Positions 713 to 56,969 of a DNA stretch of 64,000 bases are shown one piece after another. The stretch's first letter is position 1. Each line of letters begins with the position of its first letter. The stretch covers positions 11,324 to 75,323 of the forward strand of contig JAVBLF010000016.1 in NCBI GenBank assembly GCA_031553675.1, written 5' to 3'. The notes below the pieces were generated by a model. It did not search any database and was not told where the DNA came from. It saw nothing but the letters and a program-made list of their open reading frames with translations. The position numbers and the translations under genes are program-made. The stretch is from Eubacteriales bacterium (lineage in GTDB: Bacteria; Bacillota; Clostridia; Christensenellales; CALWSW01).

Positions 713-1162
713 TTGAGGGCGGTTTTGCAACGCGTCACATCCGCGTCGGTCGCGGTGGATCAGGAGATCGTTGGGAAGATCGAAAAGGGGCTTTTGGTCT
801 TGCTGGGCGTCGAGTCGGGCGATACAGATGCCGATCTCGATTACGTCGTCGAGAAGTTGGCTGTGCTGCGCATTTTCGAGGACGACGGCGGCAAGATGAA
901 CCGTTCCGTACAGGATGTCGGGGGCGGCATACTTCTGGTGTCGCAGTTTACGCTCTGCGCCGACGTTCGCAAGGGGAGGCGGCCGGGTTTCGATCAGGCG
1001 GCGCGTCCAGAAGAAGCGGAAAGCCAATATCGGGCTTGTGCGGACAAACTACGCGCCAGAGGGATACCGATCGAGATGGGTGTGTTCGGCGCGGACATGG
1101 CGGTCGCGCTCGTGAACGACGGTCCGGTGACGATCATTTTGGACAGCCGAAAGCGGATATAG
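713..1162 (+). CDS. dtd: D-aminoacyl-tRNA deacylase
   Basis: Lies in ORF 677..1162. Hallmark segments are [15 protein letters not shown] and NDGPVT. An in-frame TTG at 713, 9 nt after GGGAGG, gives the canonical MRAVLQRV N-terminus and about 149 aa. The start choice is inferred. Confidence 0.85.
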
Positions 1163-1171
1163 GGATACGAT

Positions 1172-1852
1172 ATGCAGACTTGGACATCGAATGGCACCGT
1201 CGTAGAGCGCGTCGTGTGTTATGCCTACGGCATGGGGAACAACAGTTATTTGCTCTACCAAGAGGGGCAGGGAAGCTGCATCGTCGTCGATCCCGCCGGA
1301 ACGGGCGAGGAATTGCTCGCCGCGCTGGCAGAGAAGGACCTGACGCCGGTCTGGATCTTGCTTACGCATGGCCACTTCGACCACATCCGCGGCATATCTG
1401 CCTTGGAAGAGAGATTCGGTGTGATTCCGATCGCGGTTCACGAAGGCGATGCCGCCATGCTGACCAATGCCAGACAGAACATGAGCTTGCCTTTCACGGG
1501 GCATGGGCTGGTTTTGCACGAGGCAGAGCGCCTTTTGAGCGACGGCGAAGCGTTCGAAGCCGTGGGCGTAACGCTGCGCGTGCTGCACACGCCGGGGCAC
1601 AGCGAGGGAAGCGTTTGCTTTCTCGTAGGCGACCTTCTGCTGACCGGCGACACGCTGTTTCGCCTCGGTGCGGGCCGCAGCGACATGCCCGGCGGCGACG
1701 TGCAGGCGCTGATCCGCTCGCTCGGCATGCTCTTCGCGTTGCCGGGGGAGTACGTCGTCTTGCCCGGGCACGAGAAAGAAAGCCAACTCTCGTTCGAACG
1801 GACGCAAAATACCTTTATGAAGTACTACGCGCCACAACTGCTGCGTGAATGA
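1172..1852 (+). CDS. MBL-fold metallo-hydrolase (hydroxyacylglutathione-hydrolase-like)
   Basis: Contains the LLTHGHFDHIRG metal-binding motif (HxHxDH) and a later HTPGHSEGS motif. Confidence 0.75.
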   Translation: MQTWTSNGTVVERVVCYAYGMGNNSYLLYQEGQGSCIVVDPAGTGEELLAALAEKDLTPVWILLTHGHFDHIRGISALEERFGVIPIAVHEGDAAMLTNARQNMSLPFTGHGLVLHEAERLLSDGEAFEAVGVTLRVLHTPGHSEGSVCFLVGDLLLTGDTLFRLGAGRSDMPGGDVQALIRSLGMLFALPGEYVVLPGHEKESQLSFERTQNTFMKYYAPQLLRE

Positions 1853-1861
1853 GGGCGAAGC

Positions 1862-3460
1862 GTGCGAAATATTTTCCTCAAAAGTGATTTCCCCGGCTTG
1901 TTCAACGAGATCGGCGAAGTCATACGAAGTCTGGCGGGTGCCTGTGAGATCGTCGCGCAGGAAGACGCGTCCGGCAACGAAGTCCTGTCCGAAGCCGACG
2001 TTTCGACGTCAGATATGTCAGAGTCCGGCGTTTCGACGTCGGGTGTGTCAGAGTCCGACGTTTCGACGTCGGGTGTGTCAGAGTCCGATGTTTCGGCCTC
2101 GACCTCGATCGGCGAGGGGGAGGCCGTTTTGCTGTGCAAGCGGGAGGGGCAAGGAATCGCGGCTCGTTTCCAACCATGGGGTGGAAGCGAAACTGTTTCC
2201 GTTCGCACGATCCCAGTCGGACGCGATGCGCTGGAATCTAAGCGCTTTTTAATCCGTGCCGGCAAGCGTGCGGTGTTCGAGGCACTTCGTCCGCACTTCG
2301 ACACGCCGACGCCCTGGGGCTGTCTGACCGGCATCCGTCCGACTAAACTGGCGCGCGAATCTGTGCGCAAAGAAGGGGAGGAAGCTGCCCGCAAGCGTTT
2401 TGCCGAAGAGTTTCTCGTCGCGCCGGACAAGATCGATCTCGCTTTTTCGATCGTCAGGCGGCAAGAAAGTCTGCTCGCGTCGATTCGCGCCAAGGACTTC
2501 GACCTTTACGTCGGCATCCCCTTTTGCCCGACGCGCTGCCATTACTGCTCTTTCGCCTCCTATCCGATCGGGAAGGGCGCGCGTGTGGAGGCGTATCTCG
2601 AAGCCCTCCAGCGCGAGGTTCGCGCCAACCTGCTGATCGCACAGCGCGAGGGCTGGCGGGTGCGAAGCGTATACATCGGCGGGGGGACGCCGACGGCGCT
2701 GCGTTGCGACCAATTGGAAGGGCTGCTAGAACATGTCCTCGAAGGGGCAGGGGGCTACGGGCTGGAATTCACCGTCGAAGCGGGGCGGCCGGACAGCATC
2801 GACGCGGACAAACTGCGCGCATTGAAGGTTTTGGGTGTGACTCGTCTGAGCGTCAACCCACAGACCATGAACGCCGTGACCCTCGAACGCATGGGGCGCG
2901 CGCACACGCCGGAGCAGGTCGTCGAGAGCGTATGGCTTGCGCGATCCTTGGGGTATACTTGTCTCAACATGGATCTGATCGTCGGCTTGCCGGGCGAAAA
3001 CGAGGCGATGGTCGAGCGGACATTGGAAGAAATCCAAAAGCTCGCGCCTGAAAACTTGACCGTTCACACACTTGCAATCAAGCGATCGTCGAAGCTGAAA
3101 GAGCAGCTCGATGAAACGCCCTTGCCGAACGCCGAAACGGCTGCGCGCATGGTTGCGCTGTCGCGGGACATGGCCGACAGAATGGGGCTGAAGCCTTACT
3201 ACATGTACCGACAGAAGTACATGAGCGGCAACCTGGAAAACGTGGGCTACGCCTCGTCGGGCATGGAATCGGTCTACAACGTCGACATCATGGAAGAAAC
3301 CGTGCCCATCCTCGCGCTGGGGGCAGGCGCGATCAGCAAATGGAATTTCGAGGGCGGGCGGATCGAGCGCGTCGTCAACCCCAAAGACATCGACACATAC
3401 ATCGCGAAAATCGATGCCCAGACAGAATGCCGAGCGCAACTTATGCGTCGCGATTCGTGA
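1862..3460 (+). CDS. Radical SAM HemN/HemZ-family (coproporphyrinogen-dehydrogenase-like) protein with a repeat-containing N-terminal extension
   Basis: GTG start follows GAGGG. The CxxxCxxC cluster motif appears in GIPFCPTRCHYCSF, and the C-terminal region is HemN-like. Confidence 0.75.
   Translation: MRNIFLKSDFPGLFNEIGEVIRSLAGACEIVAQEDASGNEVLSEADVSTSDMSESGVSTSGVSESDVSTSGVSESDVSASTSIGEGEAVLLCKREGQGIAARFQPWGGSETVSVRTIPVGRDALESKRFLIRAGKRAVFEALRPHFDTPTPWGCLTGIRPTKLARESVRKEGEEAARKRFAEEFLVAPDKIDLAFSIVRRQESLLASIRAKDFDLYVGIPFCPTRCHYCSFASYPIGKGARVEAYLEALQREVRANLLIAQREGWRVRSVYIGGGTPTALRCDQLEGLLEHVLEGAGGYGLEFTVEAGRPDSIDADKLRALKVLGVTRLSVNPQTMNAVTLERMGRAHTPEQVVESVWLARSLGYTCLNMDLIVGLPGENEAMVERTLEEIQKLAPENLTVHTLAIKRSSKLKEQLDETPLPNAETAARMVALSRDMADRMGLKPYYMYRQKYMSGNLENVGYASSGMESVYNVDIMEETVPILALGAGAISKWNFEGGRIERVVNPKDIDTYIAKIDAQTECRAQLMRRDS
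2000..2100 (+). repeat. In-frame 30-bp tandem repeat (about 3.3 copies) inside the radical SAM gene
   Basis: Units of gtttcgacgtcgggtgtgtcagagtccgac start at about 2000, 2030 and 2060, with a partial unit at 2090. They encode 10-aa repeats (VSTSGVSESD). Confidence 0.85.
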
Positions 3461-3466
3461 TTCAAA

Positions 3467-3505
3467 AATTCATGTATGCAAACGCATATCACGGATATAT
3501 GAATT
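3467..3505. promoter_or_regulatory. Nested imperfect palindrome (candidate operator or RNA hairpin) upstream of the lipoprotein gene
   Basis: Outer arms are aattcatgtat and atatatgaatt with one mismatch. The inner palindrome is tatgc-aaac-gcata. It lies in an AT-rich spacer just before a TTACAG-16-TATAAT-like promoter. Confidence 0.3.
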
Positions 3506-3625
3506 GCATTCACCTACTTTACAGCATCTTGCCGATAAGCTATAATGATTGAGGTGTTTGCATCTCATATTACGCGCATTGGACTTGATGTAAATATCGG
3601 AATTTTTTAGGATCATGGAGGAAGA

Positions 3626-3979
3626 ATGATGAAATTGCGGAGACCCTTGGCCCTCGTGATGGCCATCCTGATCTGCCTGTCGATGCTGGCGGGTTGCGGT
3701 GCCAACACCAAAAAGGACTACGAAGCGTGGCTGACCAAGACGACGGAAGAAATGAATGCGCTGGCGCAAAAGGGCGCTGATGTGATGGCAGCCCAGGATC
3801 CTGCGGTGGCGACCACGTACTACGACGAAGCCATCACTTCGTTTGACAAATGGATCAAAGAAGCGGGCGAGATCAAAGTTCCGAGCGATATGCAACAGGA
3901 TCACCAGACGCTCGTCGATGCGCTGACGACACAGAAAAGCACGCTCGATCAACTGAAAAACTTGATTCCCGCGCAATAA
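3626..3979 (+). CDS. Small lipoprotein of unknown function
   Basis: Signal peptide with lipobox: MMKLRRPLALVMAILICLSMLAGC. A GGAGGA RBS lies upstream. Confidence 0.7.
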   Translation: MMKLRRPLALVMAILICLSMLAGCGANTKKDYEAWLTKTTEEMNALAQKGADVMAAQDPAVATTYYDEAITSFDKWIKEAGEIKVPSDMQQDHQTLVDALTTQKSTLDQLKNLIPAQ

Positions 3980-3980
3980 G

Positions 3981-4120
3981 GCACCCCGCTAGCACCCCAT
4001 AAATCTTCGATTTGTGGGCACCCCGCTAGCACCCCATAAATCTTCGATTTGTGGGGGCCCCGCTCGTACCCCATAAATCTTCGATTTGTGGGGGCCCCGC
4101 TCGCACCCCGAAAATGTGCC
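3981..4120. repeat. 37-bp direct tandem repeat, 3 full copies plus 1 partial, each unit containing an 11-bp stem hairpin
   Basis: Units are at 3981-4017 and 4018-4054 (identical), 4055-4091 (diverged) and 4092-4120 (partial). The hairpin is ccccataaatc-ttc-gatttgtgggg. There are no spacers between units. Confidence 0.9.
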
Positions 4121-4145
4121 CCCCGTCGCAAGGAACGCGTAACAT

Positions 4146-4178
4146 CGAAAAGCCCGCCATGATCTTGGCGGGCTTTTC
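4146..4178. terminator. Bidirectional intrinsic terminator between convergent genes
   Basis: Stem gaaaagcccgcc / ggcgggcttttc, with A/T runs on both sides. Confidence 0.8.
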
Positions 4179-4264
4179 GGCGCCCCGCGAATGGGAATTC
4201 GCGGGAGGCAAAAGTTCTTTTGGTACTTTTCTTTCAAGAAAAGTACAGAAAACCCCAAGCGACA

Positions 4265-5203
4265 CTACTTGACGATCTTCGTCCCCGTCTCTCCACGGAG
4301 GGCCCCGGCGGCCTGGTCGAGGGAGGTGATGATCGCTTCTCCTGCGGGGTTGCCTTCGACGAAGGCGATGCAGGCTTCGACCTTGGGCAGCATGCTGCCG
4401 GGCGCGAAGTGCTTCTCGCCGATGTACTGGCGGGCTTCGGCGACGGTCATGCGCTCGAGGGCTTTTTGATCGGGTGTGTTAAAATGGATGCAAACGCGAT
4501 CGACGGCGGTGAGCACCATGAGGACGTCGGCCTTGAGGTCCTGCGCGAGGCGGGAGCAAGACTTGTCCTTGTCGATGACGGCGTCGATGCCCTTGAGCTT
4601 GCCGTCTTCGCGAACGACCGGAATGCCGCCGCCGCCGACGGTGATCGCGATCGAACCGTGGCTGCTCAACAGGTTGACGGCGTCAAGCTCGACGATCTCC
4701 TGGGGCTGGGGCGAGGGCACGACGCGGCGGTAACCACGTCCGGCGTCCTCGACGAAAGTGAAGCCGGTTTCGGCGACGATCGCGTCGGCTTCTTCTTTCG
4801 TGTAAAAGCGACCGATCGGTTTGCTGGGCTTCTCGAAAGCGGGGTCGGCCGAATCGACGACGACTTGGGTGACGACGCAGATCGCCTTGGCATCGATGCC
4901 CTTTTCACGCAAGCTTTGCCCCAATGCCTGCTGGAGGTGATAACCGATGTAACCCTGCGACATGGCGCCGCACTCGGCCAGGGGCATGACGGGCGTCTTC
5001 GGGCCGTTCGACGAGGCGTGATCCATCGCGAGCTTGATCATGCCGACCTGGGGGCCGTTGCCGTGGCCGACGACGATGTCGTTGCCGTCGGCAGCGAGTG
5101 TCGCGATGATGTCAGCGGCTTTTTTGACAGCCGCAAGTTGCTCCTGCGGGGTGTCGCCCAGCGCGTTTCCGCCCAACGCGACGACGATCTTTTTGCGATT
5201 CAA
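4265..5203 (-). CDS. arcC: Carbamate kinase
   Basis: N-terminus MNRKKIVVALGGNALG, with carbamate kinase-like sequence along the whole length. It is the last gene of the arcA-arcB-arcC series. Confidence 0.9.
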   Translation of the reverse strand: MNRKKIVVALGGNALGDTPQEQLAAVKKAADIIATLAADGNDIVVGHGNGPQVGMIKLAMDHASSNGPKTPVMPLAECGAMSQGYIGYHLQQALGQSLREKGIDAKAICVVTQVVVDSADPAFEKPSKPIGRFYTKEEADAIVAETGFTFVEDAGRGYRRVVPSPQPQEIVELDAVNLLSSHGSIAITVGGGGIPVVREDGKLKGIDAVIDKDKSCSRLAQDLKADVLMVLTAVDRVCIHFNTPDQKALERMTVAEARQYIGEKHFAPGSMLPKVEACIAFVEGNPAGEAIITSLDQAAGALRGETGTKIVK

Positions 5204-5218: not shown

Positions 5219-6211
5219 TTACGAGAGCGTAGCGTAAATGACGGCCTTGATGGTGTGCATGCGGTTTTCGGCCTGGTCGAAGGCGAGGGATTGCTTCGAC
5301 TCAAACACTTCGTCGCTGACTTCCATCTCGGTAACGCCGAACTTCTTGGCGATGTCGGCACCGGTCGTCGTCTTGGTGTCGTGGAAGGCGGGCAGGCAGT
5401 GCAGGAAAATGGCGTCGGGCGCGCAATTCTGCATCGCGGCGGCGTTGACTTGGTAGGGGCTGAGCTGGGCGATGCGGCGTTCCCAGACTTCTTCCGGCTC
5501 GCCCATGGAGACCCAGACGTCGGTGTAGACGACGTGAGCGCCGGTCGTGCCTTCTTTGACGTCGTCGGTCAGCGTGATCGTGCAGTTGTTTTCCGCGGCG
5601 ATCGCGCGGCAGGTCGCGACGAGTTCTTCGTTCGGGAAAAGCTCTTTCGGGGCGCAAGCCGTGAAGTTGAGGCCCATTTTTGCGCAGGCGACCATGAGGG
5701 AGTTGCCGACGTTGTTGCGGGCGTCGCCCATGAAAGTGAAGTTGATGCCTTTGAGATAGCCGAAATGCTCTTCGACCGTCAAGAGGTCGGCTAACATCTG
5801 GGTGGGGTGGAATTCGTCGGTCAGGCCGTTCCAGACCGGCACACCGGCGTAGGCAGCTAGCGTCTCGACGAGTTCCTGGCTGTAACCGCGGTATTCGATA
5901 CCGTCGTACATGCGTCCGAGTACGCGGGCGGTATCGGGAATGCTTTCCTTTTTGCCCATCTGGGAGCTGCCGGGATCGAGGTATGTCACACCGCAGCCGA
6001 GGTCGTTGCCCGCGACTTCGAAGGCGCAGCGGGTGCGGGTGGAGGTTTTTTCAAACAAAAGGACGATGTTTTTTCCGGTCAGGTATTTGTGCGGCGTGCC
6101 GGCGCGCTTGAGATCTTTGAAGTTGCGCGACAGGTTGAGGAGATAACGGATCTCGGCCGGGGAGAAATCGAGCAGCTTCAGGAAGTGTCTTCCGCGCAAA
6201 TTGAGGGCCAT
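5219..6211 (-). CDS. arcB: Ornithine carbamoyltransferase (catabolic context)
   Basis: Contains the STRTR, HPTQ and HCLP motifs. I chose the [11 protein letters not shown] start at 6211, preceded by AAAGGAG. The ORF-track start at 6277 is probably too far upstream. Confidence 0.9.
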
Positions 6212-6240: not shown

Positions 6241-7467
6241 TTATGGTTCTTCCCGGACGAGCGGCATGCTCATGCACCGTGGACCGCCGCGGCCCCGAGA
6301 GAGCTCAGAGCTGGGAATCTGGAGCACCGTGATGCCGCTGTCGGCGAGGATGCGGTTCGTGATGTTGTTGCGATCGTACACGACGACGACGCCAGGGGCG
6401 ATGCAAAGCGTGTTGGCGCCGTCGTTCCACTGCTCGCGCAAGGACGCGACGTGATCCATGCCGCCGCAGCGGATCAGCGTGACTTTCTCGCAGGCGAGCG
6501 CTTCGGCAAGCGTATTCTGGACGCTGTGGCGCGACTTCGTCACGGTGAATGCGCCACTGCCGTCGGCCTTCTTCAGGACGTAGATCGATGCGGCGTCGAG
6601 GATGCCGGGGTGGATGGTGAACGTCGCGCGGTCAATCTGGGTAAAGACCGTGTCGAGGTGCATGTAGGCGCGGATGTTCGGGATGTCGATGGCGAGTATG
6701 TTATCGACTTTCGAACGCCCTTCAATGAAGAGGTTTCGCGCGATGAGCTCGATCGCCTCGGGCGTCGTGCGCTGGGAGATGCCGATGGCCAATACATGCT
6801 CGTTGAGGTTGAGGATGTCGCCGCCCTCGATGCTAAACGCGTCGCCGCAATCGTAGTAAAACGGCACACGCCCGCGATAATCGGGGTGGTGGTTCAGCAG
6901 ATAGCGCCCGTAGAGCGTCTCACGGTTGCGGGTGATCGAAAACATCCGGTTCAAACTCACGCCCTCGCCGATCGTCGCGAAGGGGTCGCGCGTGAAGTAG
7001 AGGTTGGGAATGGGGTCTGTGATGAAGCCCAGCTTGTGGTGGAGGGCTTTGACCAAGGGTCCAGACAGGCTGCTTTCGACTTCGGATAGGCCGATGCCCG
7101 ACATCGTTTTGTCGACAATCTGCTTTTCGTCGCCCAGATCCAGCAGGATACGCTCGATCTCTTTGCGGTAATGCAGCGCGACGGGGCCCGATTCGCGGAT
7201 AAAATCGCCGATGAAACGCTGCTTGATCGATTCGTTCTGCGCGATCGTCTCGGCGACCAGGTCTTCGAGATAGACGACTTCGGCACCGTTCTCGCGAAGC
7301 ACGTTGGCAAAGTGATCGTGTTCGCGCTGCGCCGCGTCGAGGTAGGGGATGTCGTCGAACAGGAGCTGGTCGAGCAGCTCCGGCACGAGCTGTTCCAGTT
7401 CGTGCCCGGGTCGGTGCAAGAGCACCTTTTTCAGTTGGCCGATTTCGTTCGTCACGCGGATCGTCAT
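6241..7467 (-). CDS. arcA: Arginine deiminase
   Basis: [22 protein letters not shown]-terminus and a C-terminal [10 protein letters not shown] motif carrying the catalytic Cys. The start at 7467 follows AAGGAG. Confidence 0.9.
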
Positions 7468-7794
7468 CGAAAAACTCCTTCGCGTTGCGGATGGTGGCAA
7501 GACTCGATGCTAACAGTTTGCACTGAATTTGCTTTCGATGCCGGACATTGGACATGGTTCTTTTTGTATTATACGGTAAGGAAATCCTCGGAGAAACGGA
7601 TATAAGCCCGCAGCGTCCTTGCAAACGATACGTCAGCAAATCGGCGAAACAGGAAATATATCTGCGATCAACGCATAAATACTCAGATGAGCCGCGCAAG
7701 TCACCCGCGCCAAAAACTTGACAGCCGCAGGATTTCCATGTAATTTTGAAGTAAAATGGTGAACCAGCTGCGATGAAAGAAAGGGGTTTCGCGC

Positions 7795-12069: not shown

Positions 12070-12116
12070 CTTTCAAATTTGTGGGAACTGAAAGCCGAAA
12101 AACAAAGTGCAAAATA

Positions 12117-12171
12117 GGGATTCCAAAGGGTCTTGACCCTTTGGTCAGGGGTCTGGGGGATGAAATCCCCC
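12117..12171 (+). repeat. 55-nt double-hairpin intergenic repeat, copy A (near-identical copy at 53110..53165)
   Basis: Sequence: gggattccaaagggtcttgaccctttggtcaggggtctgggggatgaaatccccc. Hairpin 1 is ccaaaggg/ccctttgg. Hairpin 2 is gggggat/atccccc. Confidence 0.85.
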
Positions 12172-12202
12172 AGCGTACCCCGCAAGATAGGAGACAAAAC
12201 GA

Positions 12203-12565: not shown

Positions 12566-14781
12566 TGGACGAACGCTACGAATTGAAGCCGAATGAGAGG
12601 CTGGACGTCGAAGAGCTTTTGACTGGCCTTGAAAATTACCACCCCAAGCGCCGCGGCTGGACCTGGCGCAAGCCGGTCAAGAACCTCCAGATGGGGCCCT
12701 TTACCTACCAGGATTGCTCAGAACCGCTCAAGGACGGCGTGCCGCTGCTAGCAGCCCACAACTTCGACGGCATCGATCCGCAGCCCGGCCCCGTCATCAC
12801 GACGGAGATCGCTTCGGGACGCTTTGAAGACGACATCCGCCGCATGCGCATGGCCGCCCACCACGGCGCCGACCACATCATGGTCATCCGCACGGCCGGT
12901 CAATCCCACTTCGACGGCCTGATCGAAGGAACGCCCCAGGGCGTTGGCGGCGTGCCGATTACGCGCAAACAGGTTCGCGCCCAGCGCCGCGCGCTCGACC
13001 TGATCGAAGAAGAAGTCGGTCGTCCGATCAACTACCACTCCTACGTTTCGGGCGTCGCGGGCCCCGACGTCGCCGTTATGTTCGCCGAAGAAGGCGTCAA
13101 CGGCTGCCACCAGGATCCGCAATACAACGTCATCTACCGCAACATCAACATGGTGCGTTCTTTCGTCGATGCCTGCGAATCGAAACAGGTCATCGCGTGG
13201 AGCGGCATGGCGCAGATCGACGGCGCACACAACGCCAACGCCACCAGCCGCGAAGCTTGGAAGGTCATGCCCGAGCTGATGGTGCAGCACGCGATCAACG
13301 CGATCTTCTCGCACAAGGTCGGCATCGCGAAGGAAAACATCTGCCTGTCGACCGTTCCGCCGACCTCGACGCCCGCGCCCTGCATCCACATGGATCTGCC
13401 CTACGCCGTGGCGCTGCGCGAACTCTTCGAAGGCTACCGCATGCGCGCCCAGATGCACACGAAGTACATCGAAGCCAGCACCCGCGACGCGACCGTCACA
13501 CACGTGCTGAACATGATGATCTCGAAGCTGACGAGCGCCGACATCCAGTCGACCATCACGCCCGACGAAGGCCGCAACGTGCCGTGGCACATCTACAACA
13601 TCGAGGCCTGCGACACCGCCAAGCAGTCGCTCGTCGGCATGGATGGCCTCATGGACATGGTCGAGCTGAAAAAGGAAGGCTACCTGCGCGACACCGCCCG
13701 CGAGCTCAAAGAGCGCGCCGTGCTCTTCCTCGAAGAGATGATCGAAAAGGGCGGCTACTTCAAGGCCGTCGAAGAGGGCTTTTTCGTCGATTCGGGCTGC
13801 TACCCCGAACGCAACGGCGACGGCATCGTCCGCACGATCGACGGCGGTGTCGGCGCGGGCAGCGTCATCGCGCGCGAAAAGGATTACATGGCTCCCGTTA
13901 CGGCCCACTACGGCTACAACAACGTCGCCCAGTACGACGCGAGCGCCGAAAGCGATCCGTCCAAACTGATCGACGGCTGCACGCTCGAATGCCCAGACAA
14001 GATCGTCTTCATCGACGAGCTCGACGAGGTTGACAACGCTGCCGTCCGCATGGACGAAGTGATCGACTTCGTGCGTGGCAAGAAGCTCAAGCCCGAGATG
14101 GAGTGGATGGCCGACGGCACGATCCTCTTCACGATGTTCTTCCCGACCGATCGCCGCCACGCCGAGGCTGCCGCGCTCGAAACCGCCAAGCGCATGGGCC
14201 TGGTCGACGCCGAAGTCATCAGCCGCGAGATCATGCACCAGGCTGAGGGCACGCGCATCGAACTGAAGGCGAAAGTCACTTTCGATCTCGACCCCGACGC
14301 GCTCGTGATCCCCGAAGAGCCCGAAATCATGAGCGCCGACGAGATCCGCGCTGCCATCGAAGCCAAGCCCATGACCGTCGTCTGCGGTACGGTCGGACAA
14401 GACGAGCACTCGGTCGGCCTGCGCGAGATCATCGACATCAAACACGGCGGCATCGAGGGCTTCGGCATCAAGGTGCACTACCTCGGCACGTCGGTTCCGG
14501 TCGAAAAGCTGGTCAACGCCGCCATCGAGCTGAACGCCGACGCCATCCTCGCCTCGACGATCATCAGCCACGACGACATTCACTACAAAAACATCGCCGG
14601 TATCGACCGCATCGCCAAGGAAATGGGCGTCCGCGACAAGCTGATCTTCGCCGCGGGCGGCACCCAGGTCACGCCCGACCTCGCCGTCCAGGCTGGCGCC
14701 GATGCCGGGTTCACGCGCGGCCACAAGGGCGTCCACGTCGCCTCTTTCCTGGTCAAGCGTCGGAACGAGCTCCAAGGCTAG
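12562..14781 (+). CDS. oraE: D-ornithine 4,5-aminomutase, large subunit E (adenosylcobalamin- and PLP-dependent)
   Basis: 739 aa, with a C-terminal Rossmann-like B12-binding module (GQDEHSVGL region). Position is between oraS and a GlmL-like gene. Confidence 0.85.
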   Translation: MMDERYELKPNERLDVEELLTGLENYHPKRRGWTWRKPVKNLQMGPFTYQDCSEPLKDGVPLLAAHNFDGIDPQPGPVITTEIASGRFEDDIRRMRMAAHHGADHIMVIRTAGQSHFDGLIEGTPQGVGGVPITRKQVRAQRRALDLIEEEVGRPINYHSYVSGVAGPDVAVMFAEEGVNGCHQDPQYNVIYRNINMVRSFVDACESKQVIAWSGMAQIDGAHNANATSREAWKVMPELMVQHAINAIFSHKVGIAKENICLSTVPPTSTPAPCIHMDLPYAVALRELFEGYRMRAQMHTKYIEASTRDATVTHVLNMMISKLTSADIQSTITPDEGRNVPWHIYNIEACDTAKQSLVGMDGLMDMVELKKEGYLRDTARELKERAVLFLEEMIEKGGYFKAVEEGFFVDSGCYPERNGDGIVRTIDGGVGAGSVIAREKDYMAPVTAHYGYNNVAQYDASAESDPSKLIDGCTLECPDKIVFIDELDEVDNAAVRMDEVIDFVRGKKLKPEMEWMADGTILFTMFFPTDRRHAEAAALETAKRMGLVDAEVISREIMHQAEGTRIELKAKVTFDLDPDALVIPEEPEIMSADEIRAAIEAKPMTVVCGTVGQDEHSVGLREIIDIKHGGIEGFGIKVHYLGTSVPVEKLVNAAIELNADAILASTIISHDDIHYKNIAGIDRIAKEMGVRDKLIFAAGGTQVTPDLAVQAGADAGFTRGHKGVHVASFLVKRRNELQG

Positions 14782-14786
14782 GGAAC

Positions 14787-14869
14787 GTTGGGGCGCTGCC
14801 CCAACCCCCGCTCAAGGAGCAAGCCCCTTGAGAATCCCTATTTGGAAGCATTGAGAATGGGGGATTCCC
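14787..14869 (+). repeat. Composite GC-rich hairpin module related to the 12117/53110 repeat family
   Basis: Three elements are present: gttgggg-cgctg-ccccaac, ctcaagg-N8-ccttgag, and gaatccc...gggattc. It shares the GGGATTC / CCCTTG(A)G / GGGGGAT word set with the other copies. Confidence 0.6.
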
Positions 14870-14870
14870 T

Positions 14871-16238
14871 ATGTACATCGATTTACTGGTTGCGGAGATC
14901 GGCTCGACGACGACGGTCGTCAACGCGTTCTCCGGCATCGAAACGCCCTGCCCGCGCTTTGTCGGGCAGGGACAGGCCCCGACGAGCGTGCTGGCGGGTG
15001 ACGTCCGCGTCGGGCTGAACGAGGCGATAGAGGACCTGCGGCAGACGCTCCAGGCAGACGCGATCGAGTACGGGCAAATGCTCGCGACCTCGAGCGCCGC
15101 CGGTGGCTTGCGCATGAGCGTCCACGGCCTCGTCTTCGACATGACGGCGCGCGCCGGACGCGAAGCCGCCCTCGGCGCAGGCGCCAACATCCGCATGATC
15201 ACGGCAGGCAAGCTCACGGAGACCGATCTCCGTGAGCTTGAGGCCGTTTCGCCCAACCTCATCTTGCTGGCCGGTGGCACGGACTACGGCGAACGCGAGA
15301 CGGCCGTCTACAACGCACGCATGATCGCGACGCTGAAAGGCTGTCCGCCGGTGATCTACGCCGGAAACATCCAGTGCCAAGCCGAGATCAAAGTCATCTT
15401 GGGCGAGGCGGGCATCCGCCACTACATCGAGGAAAACGTGTACCCACGGCTCGACGAACTCAACATCGAGCCCGTCCGCAGGCGGATCCACGACGCGTTC
15501 GAGGAGCACATCATCCACGCGCCCGGCATGGAAGGCATCCGCGATCTCGTCACGGGCGCCATCCTGCCGACGCCCGGCGCTGTGATGGAATCGGCCCGCC
15601 TGCTGTACGGCATGGTGGGGGATCTCGTCGTCGTGGACGTCGGCGGCGCGACGACCGACGTTCACTCGGTCGCCGACGGCTCGGAGGAGATATCGCTTCT
15701 GCAAATCGCACCCGAACCCAAGGCGAAACGGACGGTCGAGGGGGATCTCGGCGTCTACGTCAATGCAAACAGCCTCGCCAAGGCCGTCGGTCTAGGCGTG
15801 CTCGAAAAGGAATCCGGTGTGGACGTCGAAGCGGTGCTTGCGAACTTCGAGCCCATCCCGCGGGGCGAAGATCAGCGCAAGCTCACCCAGCGCCTGGCCT
15901 ACCACGCCGCGGCGATCGCCCTCAAGCGCCACGCAGGCCGTCTGCGTCATACCTACGGCGCGACAGGGCGGCGCACCTGGGCCGAGGGCAAGGACTTAAG
16001 CTGCGCGAGATGGCTCGTCGCGACGGGCGGCGCGCTGACGCGTCTCCCCGGGCGCGAGGCGATCTTGCGCGAACTCTGCGATCTGAACGCGTCGGGCACG
16101 CTGCTCTTTCCCAAGCCGGGCAGCATGCGCGTGCTCGAAGACGCGCCCTACATCATGGCGTCGCTCGGCGTCATCTCCAAGACGTATCCCGAAGCGGCGC
16201 GCGCTCTGCTTCGCGGCGCGTTGGGATTGCCAACCTAA
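14871..16238 (+). CDS. GlmL/MutL-like ATPase (putative D-ornithine aminomutase reactivase/chaperone)
   Basis: Actin-like ATPase phosphate motifs: LLVAEIGSTTTVVNAF and VVVDVGGATTDVHS. A paralogue of the glutamate mutase L component lies at 54611..55990. Confidence 0.7.
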   Translation: MYIDLLVAEIGSTTTVVNAFSGIETPCPRFVGQGQAPTSVLAGDVRVGLNEAIEDLRQTLQADAIEYGQMLATSSAAGGLRMSVHGLVFDMTARAGREAALGAGANIRMITAGKLTETDLRELEAVSPNLILLAGGTDYGERETAVYNARMIATLKGCPPVIYAGNIQCQAEIKVILGEAGIRHYIEENVYPRLDELNIEPVRRRIHDAFEEHIIHAPGMEGIRDLVTGAILPTPGAVMESARLLYGMVGDLVVVDVGGATTDVHSVADGSEEISLLQIAPEPKAKRTVEGDLGVYVNANSLAKAVGLGVLEKESGVDVEAVLANFEPIPRGEDQRKLTQRLAYHAAAIALKRHAGRLRHTYGATGRRTWAEGKDLSCARWLVATGGALTRLPGREAILRELCDLNASGTLLFPKPGSMRVLEDAPYIMASLGVISKTYPEAARALLRGALGLPT

Positions 16239-22387: not shown

Positions 22388-22463
22388 TTTGGGGGATTGC
22401 ACGTGTCACTGCGCCACAACCCCCAAACCCCTGGCCCGAGGGGCGTGGACCCTTGGGAATCCC
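22388..22463 (+). repeat. GC-rich hairpin module related to the repeat family (contains the motif in inverted orientation)
   Basis: Contains gtttggggg...cccccaaac (9-bp stem) and cccct-ggcccg-agggg. It also contains cccttgggaatccc, which is the reverse complement of gggattcccaaggg. Confidence 0.55.
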
Positions 22464-53109: not shown

Positions 53110-53165
53110 GGGATTCCAAAGGGATTTGTCCCTTTGGTAGGGGGCTTGGGGGATGAAATCCCCCC
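53110..53165 (+). repeat. Double-hairpin intergenic repeat, copy B (about 85 % identical to 12117..12171)
   Basis: Sequence: gggattccaaagggatttgtccctttggtagggggcttgggggatgaaatcccccc. It lies between glmE and mal and is antisense relative to operon transcription. Confidence 0.85.
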
Positions 53166-53172
53166 AAAAAGC

Positions 53173-54624
53173 CTAGTTGCGTGGACGCCCGACGAGGCGA
53201 CCCTTGCTGATCGCGTAGACATCGTCGATCACCATCTGGAAGGTCGCGGGGCGCTTCTCGACGCGGGCGCGCTCTTCGAAGCGTTCGCGGTTCCATTCGA
53301 CCAGTTCTTTGCTCAACGGGATGTTACCGACGTTGAGAAAGCGGACCGCGCCGTCGTTGTCGCGGGCGGGCAGCATCTTGCCGGCGTTGAAGCGGCTGGG
53401 GGCAAAGGGCACATCGATCACACCCGCCTGGAACGCTCGCACCGCCCCGACTGCGATGTCGCCGTCGCCCAGATCGAAGCACTTGTCGACGATGCAGCGC
53501 GTTTCGGCGGCGATCGTGGCCTTTTCCGCGGCGACGCCCTGCTCGGTCAGGCCCTGCTCGCCCAGCATGGAGATCATCTGCTTCGTGCAGTGCAGGCCCT
53601 GCGCGTTGGCCTCCTTGGTCGGGATGCCCATGGCCTCGTGCGGCGTCTTGACGATGACCTTCGTCGCGTGCGAGAGGGCGGCGGCGGCGCTGCCCCAGCC
53701 GATGACGGCGTAGGCCTTGGCCTCGTCCTGCGGGAAGCCGCCCATCCACTGGTGCAGCACCGTCGTGACGACGCAATCGCAGTAGCCCGCCTTTTCGAGG
53801 TACTCCTCGGTCAACGCCAAGAGCGTGCCGATCGCGGCGACGTCCTGGACGAGGTTCCCGCACTGGCCGTAGCCGACGGTGAGACTCTTGACGCCCTGTT
53901 CCGCGGCGAGCAAGCTCTCAATGATCGCAACCGCATGCGACACGCTGGGCGGCACGAGCGTACCGGTCAGCGGGCCAAAGGGTTCGCGGTTGATCGATAC
54001 GCCGTGTTCTTCGTAGAGCCCTGTCAGACGATCGCAGTATTGCCAATCCGCGATGGTCTTTTCGAGCGAGACGTTCTTGGCGTAGGGGATGTTGTAGGAA
54101 ATGCCGCCGCCCTCGTAGCTCGTGAAGCCGCTGGCGTAACTGATCTCGGTCAGAAGACGGGCGTCAGGCGTGCCGTGACGCACCTGGACGGGGACTTGCA
54201 GCGTTTCGATGATCCGGCGGCAGGCTTCGACGCCGTGGTTGACGATCGGAAGGCCGTTGAGCATGGACTTGCCGTTCTGTGCCGACTCCTCGATGCCCCT
54301 TTGGGCTTCTTCGTAGCGGTTCTGGCGGGTGTAACTGTCTACGGTGCTGGGCAAAAGGTCGGCTTCGCCCTCGTCTTGCAGGTATTGCAAAAGGGCGATG
54401 TGATCGTCGACAAGCGCGACGCCCGCGCGCGGTTGGATCAGCGTCTGCTGATTGGCCTTGGCGGTTTCGAGCTTTTGGGCGAATCGCTTCGCTTCGGGCA
54501 GCGATTTGTGATATGCGATGGCCTCTTCCATGTCCACGGCGGCGCCGGTCGGCCACTGTTGCAATACCTCCCGCCGGATCGCTTCAAACTGATCGTCCGG
54601 CATCCGCACGTTACGCAGCTCCAT
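53173..54624 (-). CDS. glmE: Glutamate mutase (methylaspartate mutase), epsilon / E subunit
   Basis: [28 protein letters not shown]-terminus. 483 aa. It lies between glmL and mal. Confidence 0.9.
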
Positions 54625-55990
54625 GTTCGGATAACTCCTTTTTCATGATTTGAAGGGCGGCGCGGGGGTCGATTTGGCTCAGCAGTCCCATGGCCGCAAG
54701 GATGTAGTTTTGATCGAGCAAGATCGTTGCGTTTCGGGGTTTGAGCGAGAAGGGATGTTCGCGCCGCAAGGCATAGGAAGCGATCGCGCGCGGATCCTTC
54801 GCGTGGACGAGCGCGCCGCCCGTCAGCACGAGCCGCTGCACGCTGCGCAGGTCTTTGCCCGTTTGGACGTAGACTTCGCCCGCGGGGGTATAGCAGCGCT
54901 CGATCGTGCCGGCATGGCGCTCGATCGCCGCCGCCATCGCCGATCCAGCCAGCGCCGCGTCGAGCGCTTCCCATTCCGGATCGACGGGCAGGACGTCGGG
55001 CGCATCCGCCAAGGCTGCGATCCGTTCTTCCGCGCGGCCTTCCGTCAAACCAGCTTCCCGCGCGATCACGGCGATGCCCGCTTCCCGCTGTACACCGGCT
55101 GCGCCGTAGCGCATGCCAAGGTCGCCTTCGACGGTGCGTTTCGCGAACGGCTCCGGAAGCCCCTTGATCACGGTGTTGGCGCGTTCCGGCGTTCCATCGG
55201 CGATCGAATAGACGTCGGTCGTCGCGCCGCCGAGATCGACGGCCATCAACTCGCCAAGTCCCGCTTCGCCCTCGCAGCCCGTACCGAGCAGGCGCATGGC
55301 GTCGAGCATGGCGGCGGGCGTCGGCATGACGATGCCCGATACCAGCGCTTTGGCGCGGGTCAGCCCTTTGGCCTCGACGATGCGACGCAGGAAGACCGCG
55401 CGGATCGTCTCCTGGGCCGGCGCTGCATTGAGTTCGTTGAGCGCGGGCATGACGTTCTCGGTCACGAAGACCTCGCGCTCACTGAGAATGTCTCGAATCT
55501 CGTCGGCACAGACGCGGTTTCCGGCGTAAACGATGGGGAAATCGCCGACCTGTGCGAGTGCGCGGGCGTTGTGGAGCGCCGTATCGCTGTCGCCGCCATC
55601 GGTGCCGCCGGTCAGGAGCAGGATGTCGGGCCGAAGCGCTTCGATCGCGGCAAGATCACCGGGCGTAAGTTTGTAGGCGAAACTTTTTTCGACCTTGGCC
55701 CCGGCGCCGAGCGAGGCAATTTGCGCGGCCTTGGCGGTCAAAGACGGCACCAGACCGCACGCGATCATCCGAAGTCCGCCAGCCGCGCTCGAACAGGCGC
55801 GCGTTACACCGAAAGAATCGATGCCGCAATCTTGTTTGAGCCTTGCGAGCGCGCGTTCGAATCCGACGTCGATGCCCTCGCGCACGGTCGTCGGGCTGGC
55901 CGCTGTGCCGATCACGCGCGCGCCATCGATGTCGGCCGCCGTGACCTTGGTATAGGTGCTGCCGAAGTCGATCAGGAGCGCGGGTTTCAT
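54611..55990 (-). CDS. glmL: Glutamate mutase component L (GlmL/MutL reactivating chaperone-like ATPase)
   Basis: [18 protein letters not shown] and [13 protein letters not shown] actin-like ATPase motifs. The start at 55990 overlaps the glmS stop. The ORF-track extension to 56416 is out of context. Confidence 0.85.
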
Positions 55991-56409
55991 GCGATGCTCC
56001 GGGCGGCGAGATCGGCATGCAGGGCGTCGATCGTCGTCTCCGGCGCCGTGCCTGGGCCAAACACGCGATCGTAACCCATGGCGCGAAAGCGCGCCTCCAC
56101 TTCGTCGAAGGGCTGTTTGCCGACGACGATGTTGCCGCCGACATAGAGCAGTACCTTGCCGATTCCGGCCTCGACGCACTTTTCGCGCAGGCCGCGGCAG
56201 TCGAGTTCGCCGTGGCCGTAGAGCGACGAGACGATGATTGCGTCGGTGGCCGTCTCGATCGCGGCTTCGATGAACTCTTCCTGGGAAACCATGACGCCGA
56301 GGTTCGTCACGTCGAACCCTGCGTCTGTGAAAGCGTGGTAGAGAATTTTGTTGCCCACCGCGTGCACGTCGGCACCGATGACGCCGATCACGAGCTTGTA
56401 TCGATTCAT
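55987..56409 (-). CDS. glmS: Glutamate mutase, sigma / S subunit (cobalamin-binding)
   Basis: 140 aa. Contains [15 protein letters not shown] (the DxHxxG B12-binding motif). Its start overlaps the upstream stop. Confidence 0.9.
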
Positions 56410-56969
56410 TGCGCACCTCGCTGCGACAGGTATTCGCGTCTGCCGATTTTGTACAGGTCGCGTCCCTCGGCGTCGAGCAGCACGACGGCGGGGAAATCTT
56501 CGACTTCCAGGCGGTAGATCGCCTCGGGGCCCAGGTCTTCGTATGCGACGCATTCCATGCGTTTGACGCGGCTGGCCAAAAGCGCTCCCGCGCCGCCGAT
56601 CGCGCCGAAGTAGACAGCGCCGTTGCGCCGGATGGCTTCGACGACCTCGGAGCCGCGCTTGCCCTTTCCGATCATGCCGCGCAAGCCCCGATCGAGCAAG
56701 GTCGGCGCGTAAGCGTCCATGCGATAACTCGTCGTCGGCCCACAGGAACCGATGATCGCGCCGGGTTTGGCGGGCGTCGGACCGACGTAATAGAGCACGG
56801 CTCCTTCGAGAGGGAAGGGGAGGGCTTCGTTGTTTTGCACGAGCGCGACGAGTCGCTTGTGCGCGGCGTCGCGCGCCGTATAGATCACGCCGGAAAAGGA
56901 CACTTCATCCCCCGATCGGAGCGTCTTGGCCTTTTCCGCGGAGAGGGGCGTCTCGATGCGTGTAGCCAT
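56406..56969 (-). CDS. Class I (Fe-S) fumarate hydratase-type hydro-lyase, beta subunit (probable mesaconase component)
   Basis: The [14 protein letters not shown] and GKGKRG segments are typical of FumA/TtdB C-terminal-domain proteins. It shows TGATG overlap with the alpha subunit gene. Confidence 0.8.

Follow-up and report, generated by a model that had tools for sequence, protein, structure and literature searches.

The two-hairpin repeat found within both B12-dependent mutase operons of a 64,000-nucleotide stretch of Eubacteriales DNA (hereafter the window) probably belongs to a large family of REP/BIME-like extragenic palindromic repeats, so far uncatalogued, whose copies spread within genomes. 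A new REP-like family is suggested by the unpaired tag joined to a hairpin, by extragenic placement in both orientations, by the frequency of head-to-head dimers and by the existence of within-genome subfamilies and insertion polymorphism.

An earlier, sequence-only reading of the window had described two look-alike 55-nucleotide copies of about 85% identity, a description that pairwise comparison confirms. Copies A (12117-12171) and B (53110-53164), both on the plus strand, align without gaps and are identical at 48 of 55 positions (87%). The 29-nucleotide core pattern matches the window twice and none of 100 dinucleotide-preserving shuffles, and for the second-hairpin pattern the shuffles average 0.05 matches. 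As had been proposed, the differences spare the stems: all seven fall at the apex of hairpin 1 (element positions 15, 16 and 20) or in the linker (positions 30, 31, 36 and 37), and at positions 15/20 a T-A pair is flipped to A-T with the pair kept. RNA folding of 81-nucleotide stretches in either orientation forms both hairpins (-31 to -39 kcal/mol, z -2.8 to -4.8), which reproduces the claim that each copy carries two hairpins formable both ways; single-stranded DNA folding likewise forms both (z -3.1 and -5.2).

Genomic neighborhood analysis places copy A 47 nucleotides 3′ of the ortB stop and ∼20 nucleotides 5′ of the oraS Shine-Dalgarno sequence, sense to the operon, and copy B, antisense to its operon, in the spacer bounded by the glmE stop (53173-53175) and the mal start (53074), both on the minus strand. 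These placements and orientations had been read correctly, and the gene names are supported by Pfam: copy A is flanked by a PALP-domain enzyme gene (ortB) and oraS, copy B by genes for the methylaspartate mutase E chain and methylaspartate ammonia-lyase. The two copies are not a single chance duplicate, since further copies exist in the window and in other genomes. A full third copy, C, was found from an inverted repeat (12112-12141 / 14814-14843) returned by a repeat finder, followed by reading of the spacer and alignment; it lies in the ornithine operon between oraE and a MutL-like reactivase gene, antisense to the operon, and compared with A and B both of its stems have changed while compensatory changes keep the pairing. 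The degenerate copy D occupies the spacer between valS and a folC-like (Mur ligase) gene, outside both mutase operons, and the element is therefore not confined to them. All four window copies are intergenic singletons, one sense and three antisense, and no terminator-like or promoter-like site was found at any of them. Three hairpin-1 variants coexist in this one 64-kb window: CCAAAGGG (A and B), CTCAAGGG (C) and CCCAAGGG (D). Hairpin 2 of A and B (GGGGGAT-GAA-ATCCCCC) is matched exactly by no other sampled copy, and this A/B-specific hairpin had 0 matches in a metagenome scan.

Table 1. Positions of the repeat copies, their parts and neighboring features. Positions refer to the window unless another locus is named; R1 is the covariance model of the family.
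Feature	Position	Strand	Score	Details
Copy A	12117-12173	+	60.4 bits, E 7e-15 (R1)	
Copy A, tag	12117-12122	+		GGGATT, unpaired
Copy A, hairpin 1	12123-12144	+		9 bp, loop CTTG; arms CCAAAGGGT/ACCCTTTGG
Copy A, linker	12145-12152	+		G-rich
Copy A, hairpin 2	12153-12173	+		CTGGGGGAT-GAA-ATCCCCCAG
Copy B	53110-53165	+	61.6 bits, E 3e-15 (R1)	
Copy B, tag	53110-53115	+		
Copy B, hairpin 1	53116-53137	+		
Copy B, linker	53138-53147	+		
Copy B, hairpin 2	53148-53164	+		GGGGGAT-GAA-ATCCCCC
Copy C	14781-14838	-	63.0 bits, E 1.4e-15 (R1)	full third copy
Copy C, tag and start of hairpin 1	14838-14832	-		GGGATTC
Copy C, hairpin 1	14832-14811	-		CTCAAGGGG/CTCCTTGAG
Copy C, linker		-		between hairpins 1 and 2
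Copy C, hairpin 2	14804-14788	-		TTGGGGC-AGC-GCCCCAA; arms GTTGGGGC/GCCCCAAC
Copy C, tail	14787-14781	-		CGTTCCC, abutting the oraE stop codon (14779-14781)
Copy D	22389-22463	-	32.5 bits, E 3e-6 (R1); 21.2 bits in filters-off window scan	degenerate
Copy D, tag and hairpin 1		-		variant CCCAAGGG/CCCTCGGG, one mismatch
Copy D, hairpin 2		-		TTTGGGGG...CCCCCAAA, insertion in loop
Spacer with predicted three-way structure	14779-14870	+		mRNA sense
MutL-family (PF13941) reactivase-like gene, ornithine operon	14871-16238	+		
MutL-family (PF13941) reactivase-like gene, glutamate mutase operon	54611-56416	-		
THF (tetrahydrofolate) riboswitch, RF01831	24896-25001	+	66.4 bits, E 7e-13	
Tandem hairpin array	1995-2095			30-nt period x 3.4 (CCGACGT-TTCG-ACGTCGG)
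Tandem hairpin array	3980-4109			37-nt period x 3.5 (CCCATAAATC-TTC-GATTTGTGGG)
L101, first copy	5837-5893	+		
L101, second copy	6833-6889	-		
L080, array	841-2278	+		12 copies
L080, array	4078-4525	-		4 copies
L080, array	6542-7386	-		7 copies
L071, composite repeat	3346-3895			
L071, composite repeat	5323-6016			
L071, composite repeat	7228-7655			

The surroundings of these copies hold several features of their own. Read in the mRNA sense, the oraE-MutL spacer would close into a three-way structure: the copy C tail UAGGGAAC, which overlaps the oraE stop, has a predicted pairing partner in GGAUUCCCU, immediately 5′ of the start codon of the MutL-like gene. This pairing may be due to chance. 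A MutL-family reactivase-like gene is present in each mutase operon, and the protein of the glutamate mutase operon has an N-terminal extension of ∼145 residues. The window also contains a THF riboswitch, its sole Rfam family above threshold, and two tandem hairpin arrays, the second of which starts directly after a stop codon. The arrays belong to a repeat family other than the two-hairpin element and show that spacers of this genome can accommodate hairpin arrays.

Across the family, the unit spans ∼52-60 nucleotides and consists of four parts. An unpaired 5′ tag, GGGATT, follows an A-rich flank; it is invariant in copies selected by pattern and appears as GGGAAT in some of those found by the model. 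The tag leads into a 9-bp hairpin of conserved sequence, C-Y-M-AAGGG-N / N-CCCTT-K-R-G, tag and hairpin 1 together covering 28 nucleotides. A purine-rich YRGGGK linker (e.g. CGGGGT, TGGGGT or CAGGGG) is followed by at least one further GC hairpin, the stem of which is free in sequence and always paired, with a loop that is usually 3 nucleotides long. This second hairpin (6-10 bp) usually ends GGGGC-RRM-GCCCC, and extra hairpin modules may come after it. The 3′ tail is heterogeneous, and terminal complementarity extends over at most 4 nucleotides (GGGA...TCCC) in a minority of copies. In some Acidobacteriota, Desulfovibrionales and Proteobacteria, a short and conserved 3′ module, CCGCCGGAGGC, replaces the G-rich linker and second hairpin (loci L007, L008, L012, L015, L016, L031, L073, L079, L097 and L114).

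The hairpin structure is under selection. The search pattern permitted mismatch at two hairpin-1 pairs (Y/R and M/K); the counts at these positions are independent of the model-guided alignment. The Y/R pair is CG in 88 copies and TA in 41, with no mixed combination (Watson-Crick in 129/129), and the M/K pair is AT in 92 and CG in 36, with one exception (128/129). The sequence-only reading had also proposed a covariance model, and the one built here (R1) shows strong covariation. In a model-guided alignment of 150 copies (145 distinct), which is fitted to R1 and hence favors structure, standard pairs fill 98.2% of pair cells and double-sided changes occur at 15 of 17 pairs; none of 500 shuffles reached the observed pairing and covariation values, and sliding the partners by one column left pairing at 60% or less.

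Finer features of the alignment bear on the strand and on alternative folds. Wobble-type mismatches (G-T/G-U) favor the tag strand in 39 cases and the opposite strand in 17, a statistic that is not clean because the copies are related; going by this bias, the tag strand seems to be the one on which hairpin formation counts. The linker mirrors the 5′ arm of hairpin 2 (3.73 versus 3.29 +/- 0.07 in swapped controls, which ignore relatedness) and could pair with its 3′ arm as an alternative. The dispersed-repeat explanation leaves this mirroring unaccounted for. No conserved loop or junction nucleotides were found besides the tag and the hairpin 1 stem. An outer helix between linker and 3′ tail, suggested by the minimum free energy fold of copy A, was rejected as a family feature (4.06 versus 4.01 in swapped-tail controls); a G-quadruplex, a Shine-Dalgarno mimic, CsrA-type GGA loops and a tRNA-like arm were dropped from the sequence alone, the positions concerned being unconserved or already paired.

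Scanning one genome per bacterial species with the pattern GGGATTCYMAAGGG-N7-CCTTKRG, a wider form of the search for further copies that the sequence-only reading had suggested, gave matches in at least 118 stretches of species-representative genomes, against ∼4 expected by chance (uniform base composition, our own arithmetic). Hosts among the matches listed include Bacillota (Oscillospiraceae, Christensenellales), Synergistota (Synergistaceae, Fretibacterium), Desulfovibrionales, Lentisphaerae, Verrucomicrobiota, Acidobacteriota, Spirochaetota, Nitrospirota, Chloroflexi, Chlamydiales and Alphaproteobacteria. Mis-binning cannot account for this breadth, as some of the matching contigs measure 0.3-4.3 Mb. 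The model R1 matched the first 100 sources 168 times and the other 28 sources 86 times. Once overlaps are removed, 194 copies are left in 124 sources (123 loci plus the window), of which 45 contain at least two. Counts are 4 copies in the 64-kb window and up to 6 per 8-kb block, with 23 in the L080 arrays; by extrapolation, the density would be ∼60 copies per Mb. At least 10 matches lie within 60 nucleotides of a contig end, counting true contig ends only (the loci being 8-kb blocks), as expected because repeats break assemblies. Only 7 matches were found in 2.9 million viral contigs, which gives no sign of a phage origin, and annotated plasmid and phage records yielded weak partial BLAST matches only, none of them annotated.

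Genomic context indicates that the copies are intergenic and behave as a dispersed repeat. Longest-ORF calling puts 45 copies 'inside ORFs', a consequence of shadow ORFs in GC-rich DNA, and genes around the copies were instead called with a crude GC3 filter, under which 69 copies are classifiable and only 2 of them fall in a likely ORF. Co-directional spacers hold 24 sense and 17 antisense copies, convergent spacers 17 and divergent spacers 9. In other genomes, copies at most 200 nucleotides apart are arranged head-to-head in 19 pairs, head-to-tail in 5 and tail-to-tail in 0. Copies are more alike within a genome than between genomes (mean identity 0.64 vs 0.57), and in multi-copy genomes the nearest relative of 39 of 111 copies lies in the same genome. 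Comparison with relatives addresses the window copies directly. OraE homologues of 79-80% identity are present in Clostridia, Christensenellales and Eubacteriales MAGs, and in two of these relatives the ortB and oraS genes overlap (L119) or are 39 nucleotides apart (L120), while the oraE-MutL spacers are of unrelated sequence; R1 finds no copy anywhere in the two orthologous 14-kb loci. Judging from this absence at the relatives' junctions, the copies in the window's mutase operons are insertions, and the existence of relatives with the same operons and no element argues against a required role there.

Individual loci illustrate the range of arrangements (Table 1). In L101, one copy lies between groEL and groES and the other at the 3′ end of a deaminase-like ORF, the frame of which runs through the copy to a stop just past the tag, so that its C-terminus has apparently been rewritten by the insertion; an identical additional hairpin, CCCGCGGCGCAAAGCGCCGC, precedes each of the two copies. 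In the Spirochaetia contig CBDDCK010000005.1 (L080), the element is part of a 110/132-nucleotide unit in long tandem arrays flanking two gene pairs, each encoding a GmrSD_N (DUF262) and a RiboL-PSP HEPN protein, in what looks like a defense island. An Oscillospiraceae MAG (L071) carries three non-coding composite repeats of ∼430-690 nucleotides, spaced ∼2 kb apart, with head-to-head element copies at their bounds and interiors rich in UUCG-loop hairpins and GTCTGTACAGAC palindromes. No Rfam family matched these composite repeats, which may represent either a structured element of larger size or an RNA not yet catalogued.

Searches for a known family or a partner enzyme were negative within their scope. 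Rfam 15 scans at gathering thresholds matched no family at any copy in the window and 30 loci, and E-value scans of three copies gave inconsistent sub-threshold matches (Clostridiales-2 with 21 bits on copy A, absent on copy C). The sequence string is absent from the searchable full-text literature, and the REP/RAYT papers describe neither the tag nor the family. All-against-all clustering of 4,419 flanking ORFs showed no enriched neighbor protein family; the recurring ones are housekeeping (ABC ATPase, GGDEF, UvrB, RF1, MetRS and others), each in at most 10 loci. Among ORFs of at least 70 residues in the window and 127 loci (∼1.2 Mb), phmmer searches with single sequences found no match to E. 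coli RayT or to an approximate IS200 TnpA. With such queries this is weak negative evidence, and a single-copy RAYT would in any case rarely fall within the loci searched. No target-site duplication or clear boundaries were definable, the flanks showing only an A-rich 5′ side.

Among known systems, the closest likeness is to REP, BIME and REPIN elements (PMC3733652, PMC2817692, PMC3116915). These share with the element a short GC-rich hairpin with a conserved unpaired tag at its 5′ foot, strictly extragenic placement in either orientation, including inside operons, within-genome subfamilies, composite arrays and a mismatch tolerance biased to one strand. CGTC repeats are mostly arranged as head-to-head dimers (PMC3733652), the arrangement that also predominates here. 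However, REP tags are GTAG or CGTC whereas the element carries GGGATT at the same position, which places it in neither described superfamily, and each unit holds at least two different hairpins, the first constrained in sequence and the others in structure only. REPs typically number more than 100 copies per genome; the element was counted at 4 in 64 kb and at up to 6 per 8-kb block. Known REP families are mostly proteobacterial and lineage-specific, whereas hairpin 1 is common to more than 10 phyla, including Bacillota and Synergistota. REPs also have an associated RAYT gene, and none was found for the element in the window and loci.

Other mobile or regulatory hairpins resemble the element in part. 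In the subterminal hairpins of IS200/IS605 elements and in PATEs, a hairpin with adjacent unpaired nucleotides is recognized on one DNA strand; recognition of this kind would account for the presence of a tag as well as for the covariation and wobble bias. Unlike IS200/IS605, the element does not form left-end/right-end pairs around a transposase or TnpB gene, and it has no fixed target tetranucleotide, only the A-rich 5′ flank. Integron attC sites are likewise single-strand hairpin recombination sites in which structure ranks above sequence, but each carries R″/R′ boxes (RYYYAAC / GTTRRRY) and is found at the end of a cassette, in a single orientation and beside an integrase. Such boxes are not visible in the four window copies, copies occur in both orientations, and no integrase-like neighbor is enriched. 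Intrinsic terminators are also GC-rich hairpins downstream of genes; they end in a T-run, however, while the element has none after either hairpin on either strand and sits between co-transcribed cistrons.

Four other explanations were weighed against the dispersed REP-like repeat. The sequence-only reading had offered 'REP/MITE-like' as one label, of which the REP half is supported: the window contains four copies, including copy D beyond the mutase operons, hundreds occur in other genomes, and they covary, are intergenic without orientation bias, form head-to-head dimers and are absent from relatives' junctions. The MITE half fares worse. MITEs (Correia, RUP, Nezha) are also small, non-autonomous and intergenic, and can fold in mRNA and alter the expression of neighbors; the element matches them in being short, non-coding, multi-copy and polymorphic between relatives, and some copies start GGGA and end TCCC. 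However, MITEs have terminal inverted repeats and target-site duplications, neither of which was found: terminal complementarity stays within 4 nucleotides, the 3′ tail is confined to a minority of copies, and there is no consistent flanking direct duplication. With no transposase gene enriched nearby, and with strict hairpin covariation and head-to-head dimers being REP traits and not MITE traits, a MITE is very unlikely. A dimeric DNA-binding protein might instead recognize a palindromic operator in double-stranded DNA (CCAAAGGG-N6-CCCTTTGG), which would account for hairpin 1 as an 8-6-8 inverted repeat with conserved stem sequence and free center. Operator half-sites could vary independently, though, while the arms of hairpin 1 change only together, the second hairpin is free in sequence yet near-perfectly paired, and divergent promoter regions contain fewer copies than do sites between cistrons or 3′ of genes, making an operator extremely improbable.

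Two RNA-based explanations draw on the same hairpins. The sequence-only reading had also proposed that RNA processing or stability sets subunit stoichiometry, and an operon-internal element selected for this in B12-mutase operons fits the placement of three of the four window copies between cistrons of the two mutase operons, each after a stop codon and before an intact Shine-Dalgarno sequence, as well as hairpins that are stable as RNA in either orientation. REPs of E. coli stabilize upstream mRNA segments (reviewed in PMC2817692). As the element's raison d'être, however, this role finds no support: the element lacks operon specificity, occurs in either orientation (one sense and three antisense in the window, with no bias across genomes) and is missing from the corresponding operons of relatives. 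Copy D lies between valS and the folC-like gene, and elsewhere copies are found between groEL and groES and beside unrelated housekeeping genes, with no gene family enriched. The implied tie to B12-dependent operons rests on three of four copies in one window and has no counterpart among the neighbors of 118 other loci; as ∼13 of ∼58 junctions lie in the two operons, the post-hoc p is ∼0.04 by our own estimate. Selection for stoichiometry is thus decidedly unlikely. A functional structured RNA class serving many contexts, such as a protein-binding or self-processing motif, in place of selfish DNA, would be consistent with the strong conservation of sequence and structure across phyla, the wobble pairs biased to one strand (a bias that would fit RNA function as well), the alternative pairing of the linker with the hairpin 2 3′ arm, and the head-to-head dimer, which offers one sense copy to transcription from either side. 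It is nevertheless unlikely: copies have no orientation preference relative to flanking genes, lack conserved loop or junction nucleotides beyond the tag and first stem, match no known ribozyme or riboswitch family, and vary in presence at orthologous sites.

Taken together, the results show units that multiply inside genomes and come to lie in spacers between genes, in either orientation and either alone or paired head to head; the copies found within the operons for ornithine aminomutase and glutamate mutase are insertions of this kind. By analogy with the Y1 HUH transposases (RAYTs) that process REPs, and with IS200/IS605, the tag and hairpin 1 may form the recognition site of a trans-acting, strand-specific enzyme acting on the single-stranded hairpin. 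Within operons, and by analogy with the REPs of E. coli, the hairpins would fold in mRNA in either orientation and may slow 3′-to-5′ decay or uncouple neighboring cistrons; this would be a side effect and not the element's reason to exist, and in the mutase operons an effect on mRNA stability is possible as a by-product at most.

REPs normally co-evolve with a lineage-specific RAYT under vertical inheritance (10.1101/2022.05.22.493013; PMC6006769), so a hairpin 1 that is nearly the same in more than 10 phyla is out of the ordinary for them. The coexistence of three hairpin-1 variants in this one window and the mirroring between linker and hairpin 2 also sit awkwardly with a standard REP family. 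Since the tag and hairpin 1 stay nearly identical while the rest drifts, they could be the recognition site of a putative partner. A joint reading can be put forward tentatively, and is rather doubtful: either such a partner exists, being a horizontally traveling, strand-specific hairpin enzyme or a conserved host factor, or the element is a functional structured RNA in which linker and hairpin 2 act as a switch.

For the window itself, the analysis removes a tempting link between hairpins and B12-mutase biology, the hairpins being best read as dispersed-repeat insertions. In practical terms, metagenome assemblies break at such repeats, reading frames can be lengthened or cut short by them (the L101 deaminase ORF runs into a copy), and operons acquire stable hairpins. 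REP-type repeats and the enzymes that mobilize them are known mainly from Proteobacteria, and the present family stands outside the GTAG and CGTC superfamilies. Common to gut and sediment anaerobes of many phyla, it would offer a handle on how repeats originate and are maintained outside the Proteobacteria. If the partner reading is true, the family would be the first superfamily of REP-like repeats to span Bacillota, Synergistota, Desulfobacterota, Spirochaetota and others.
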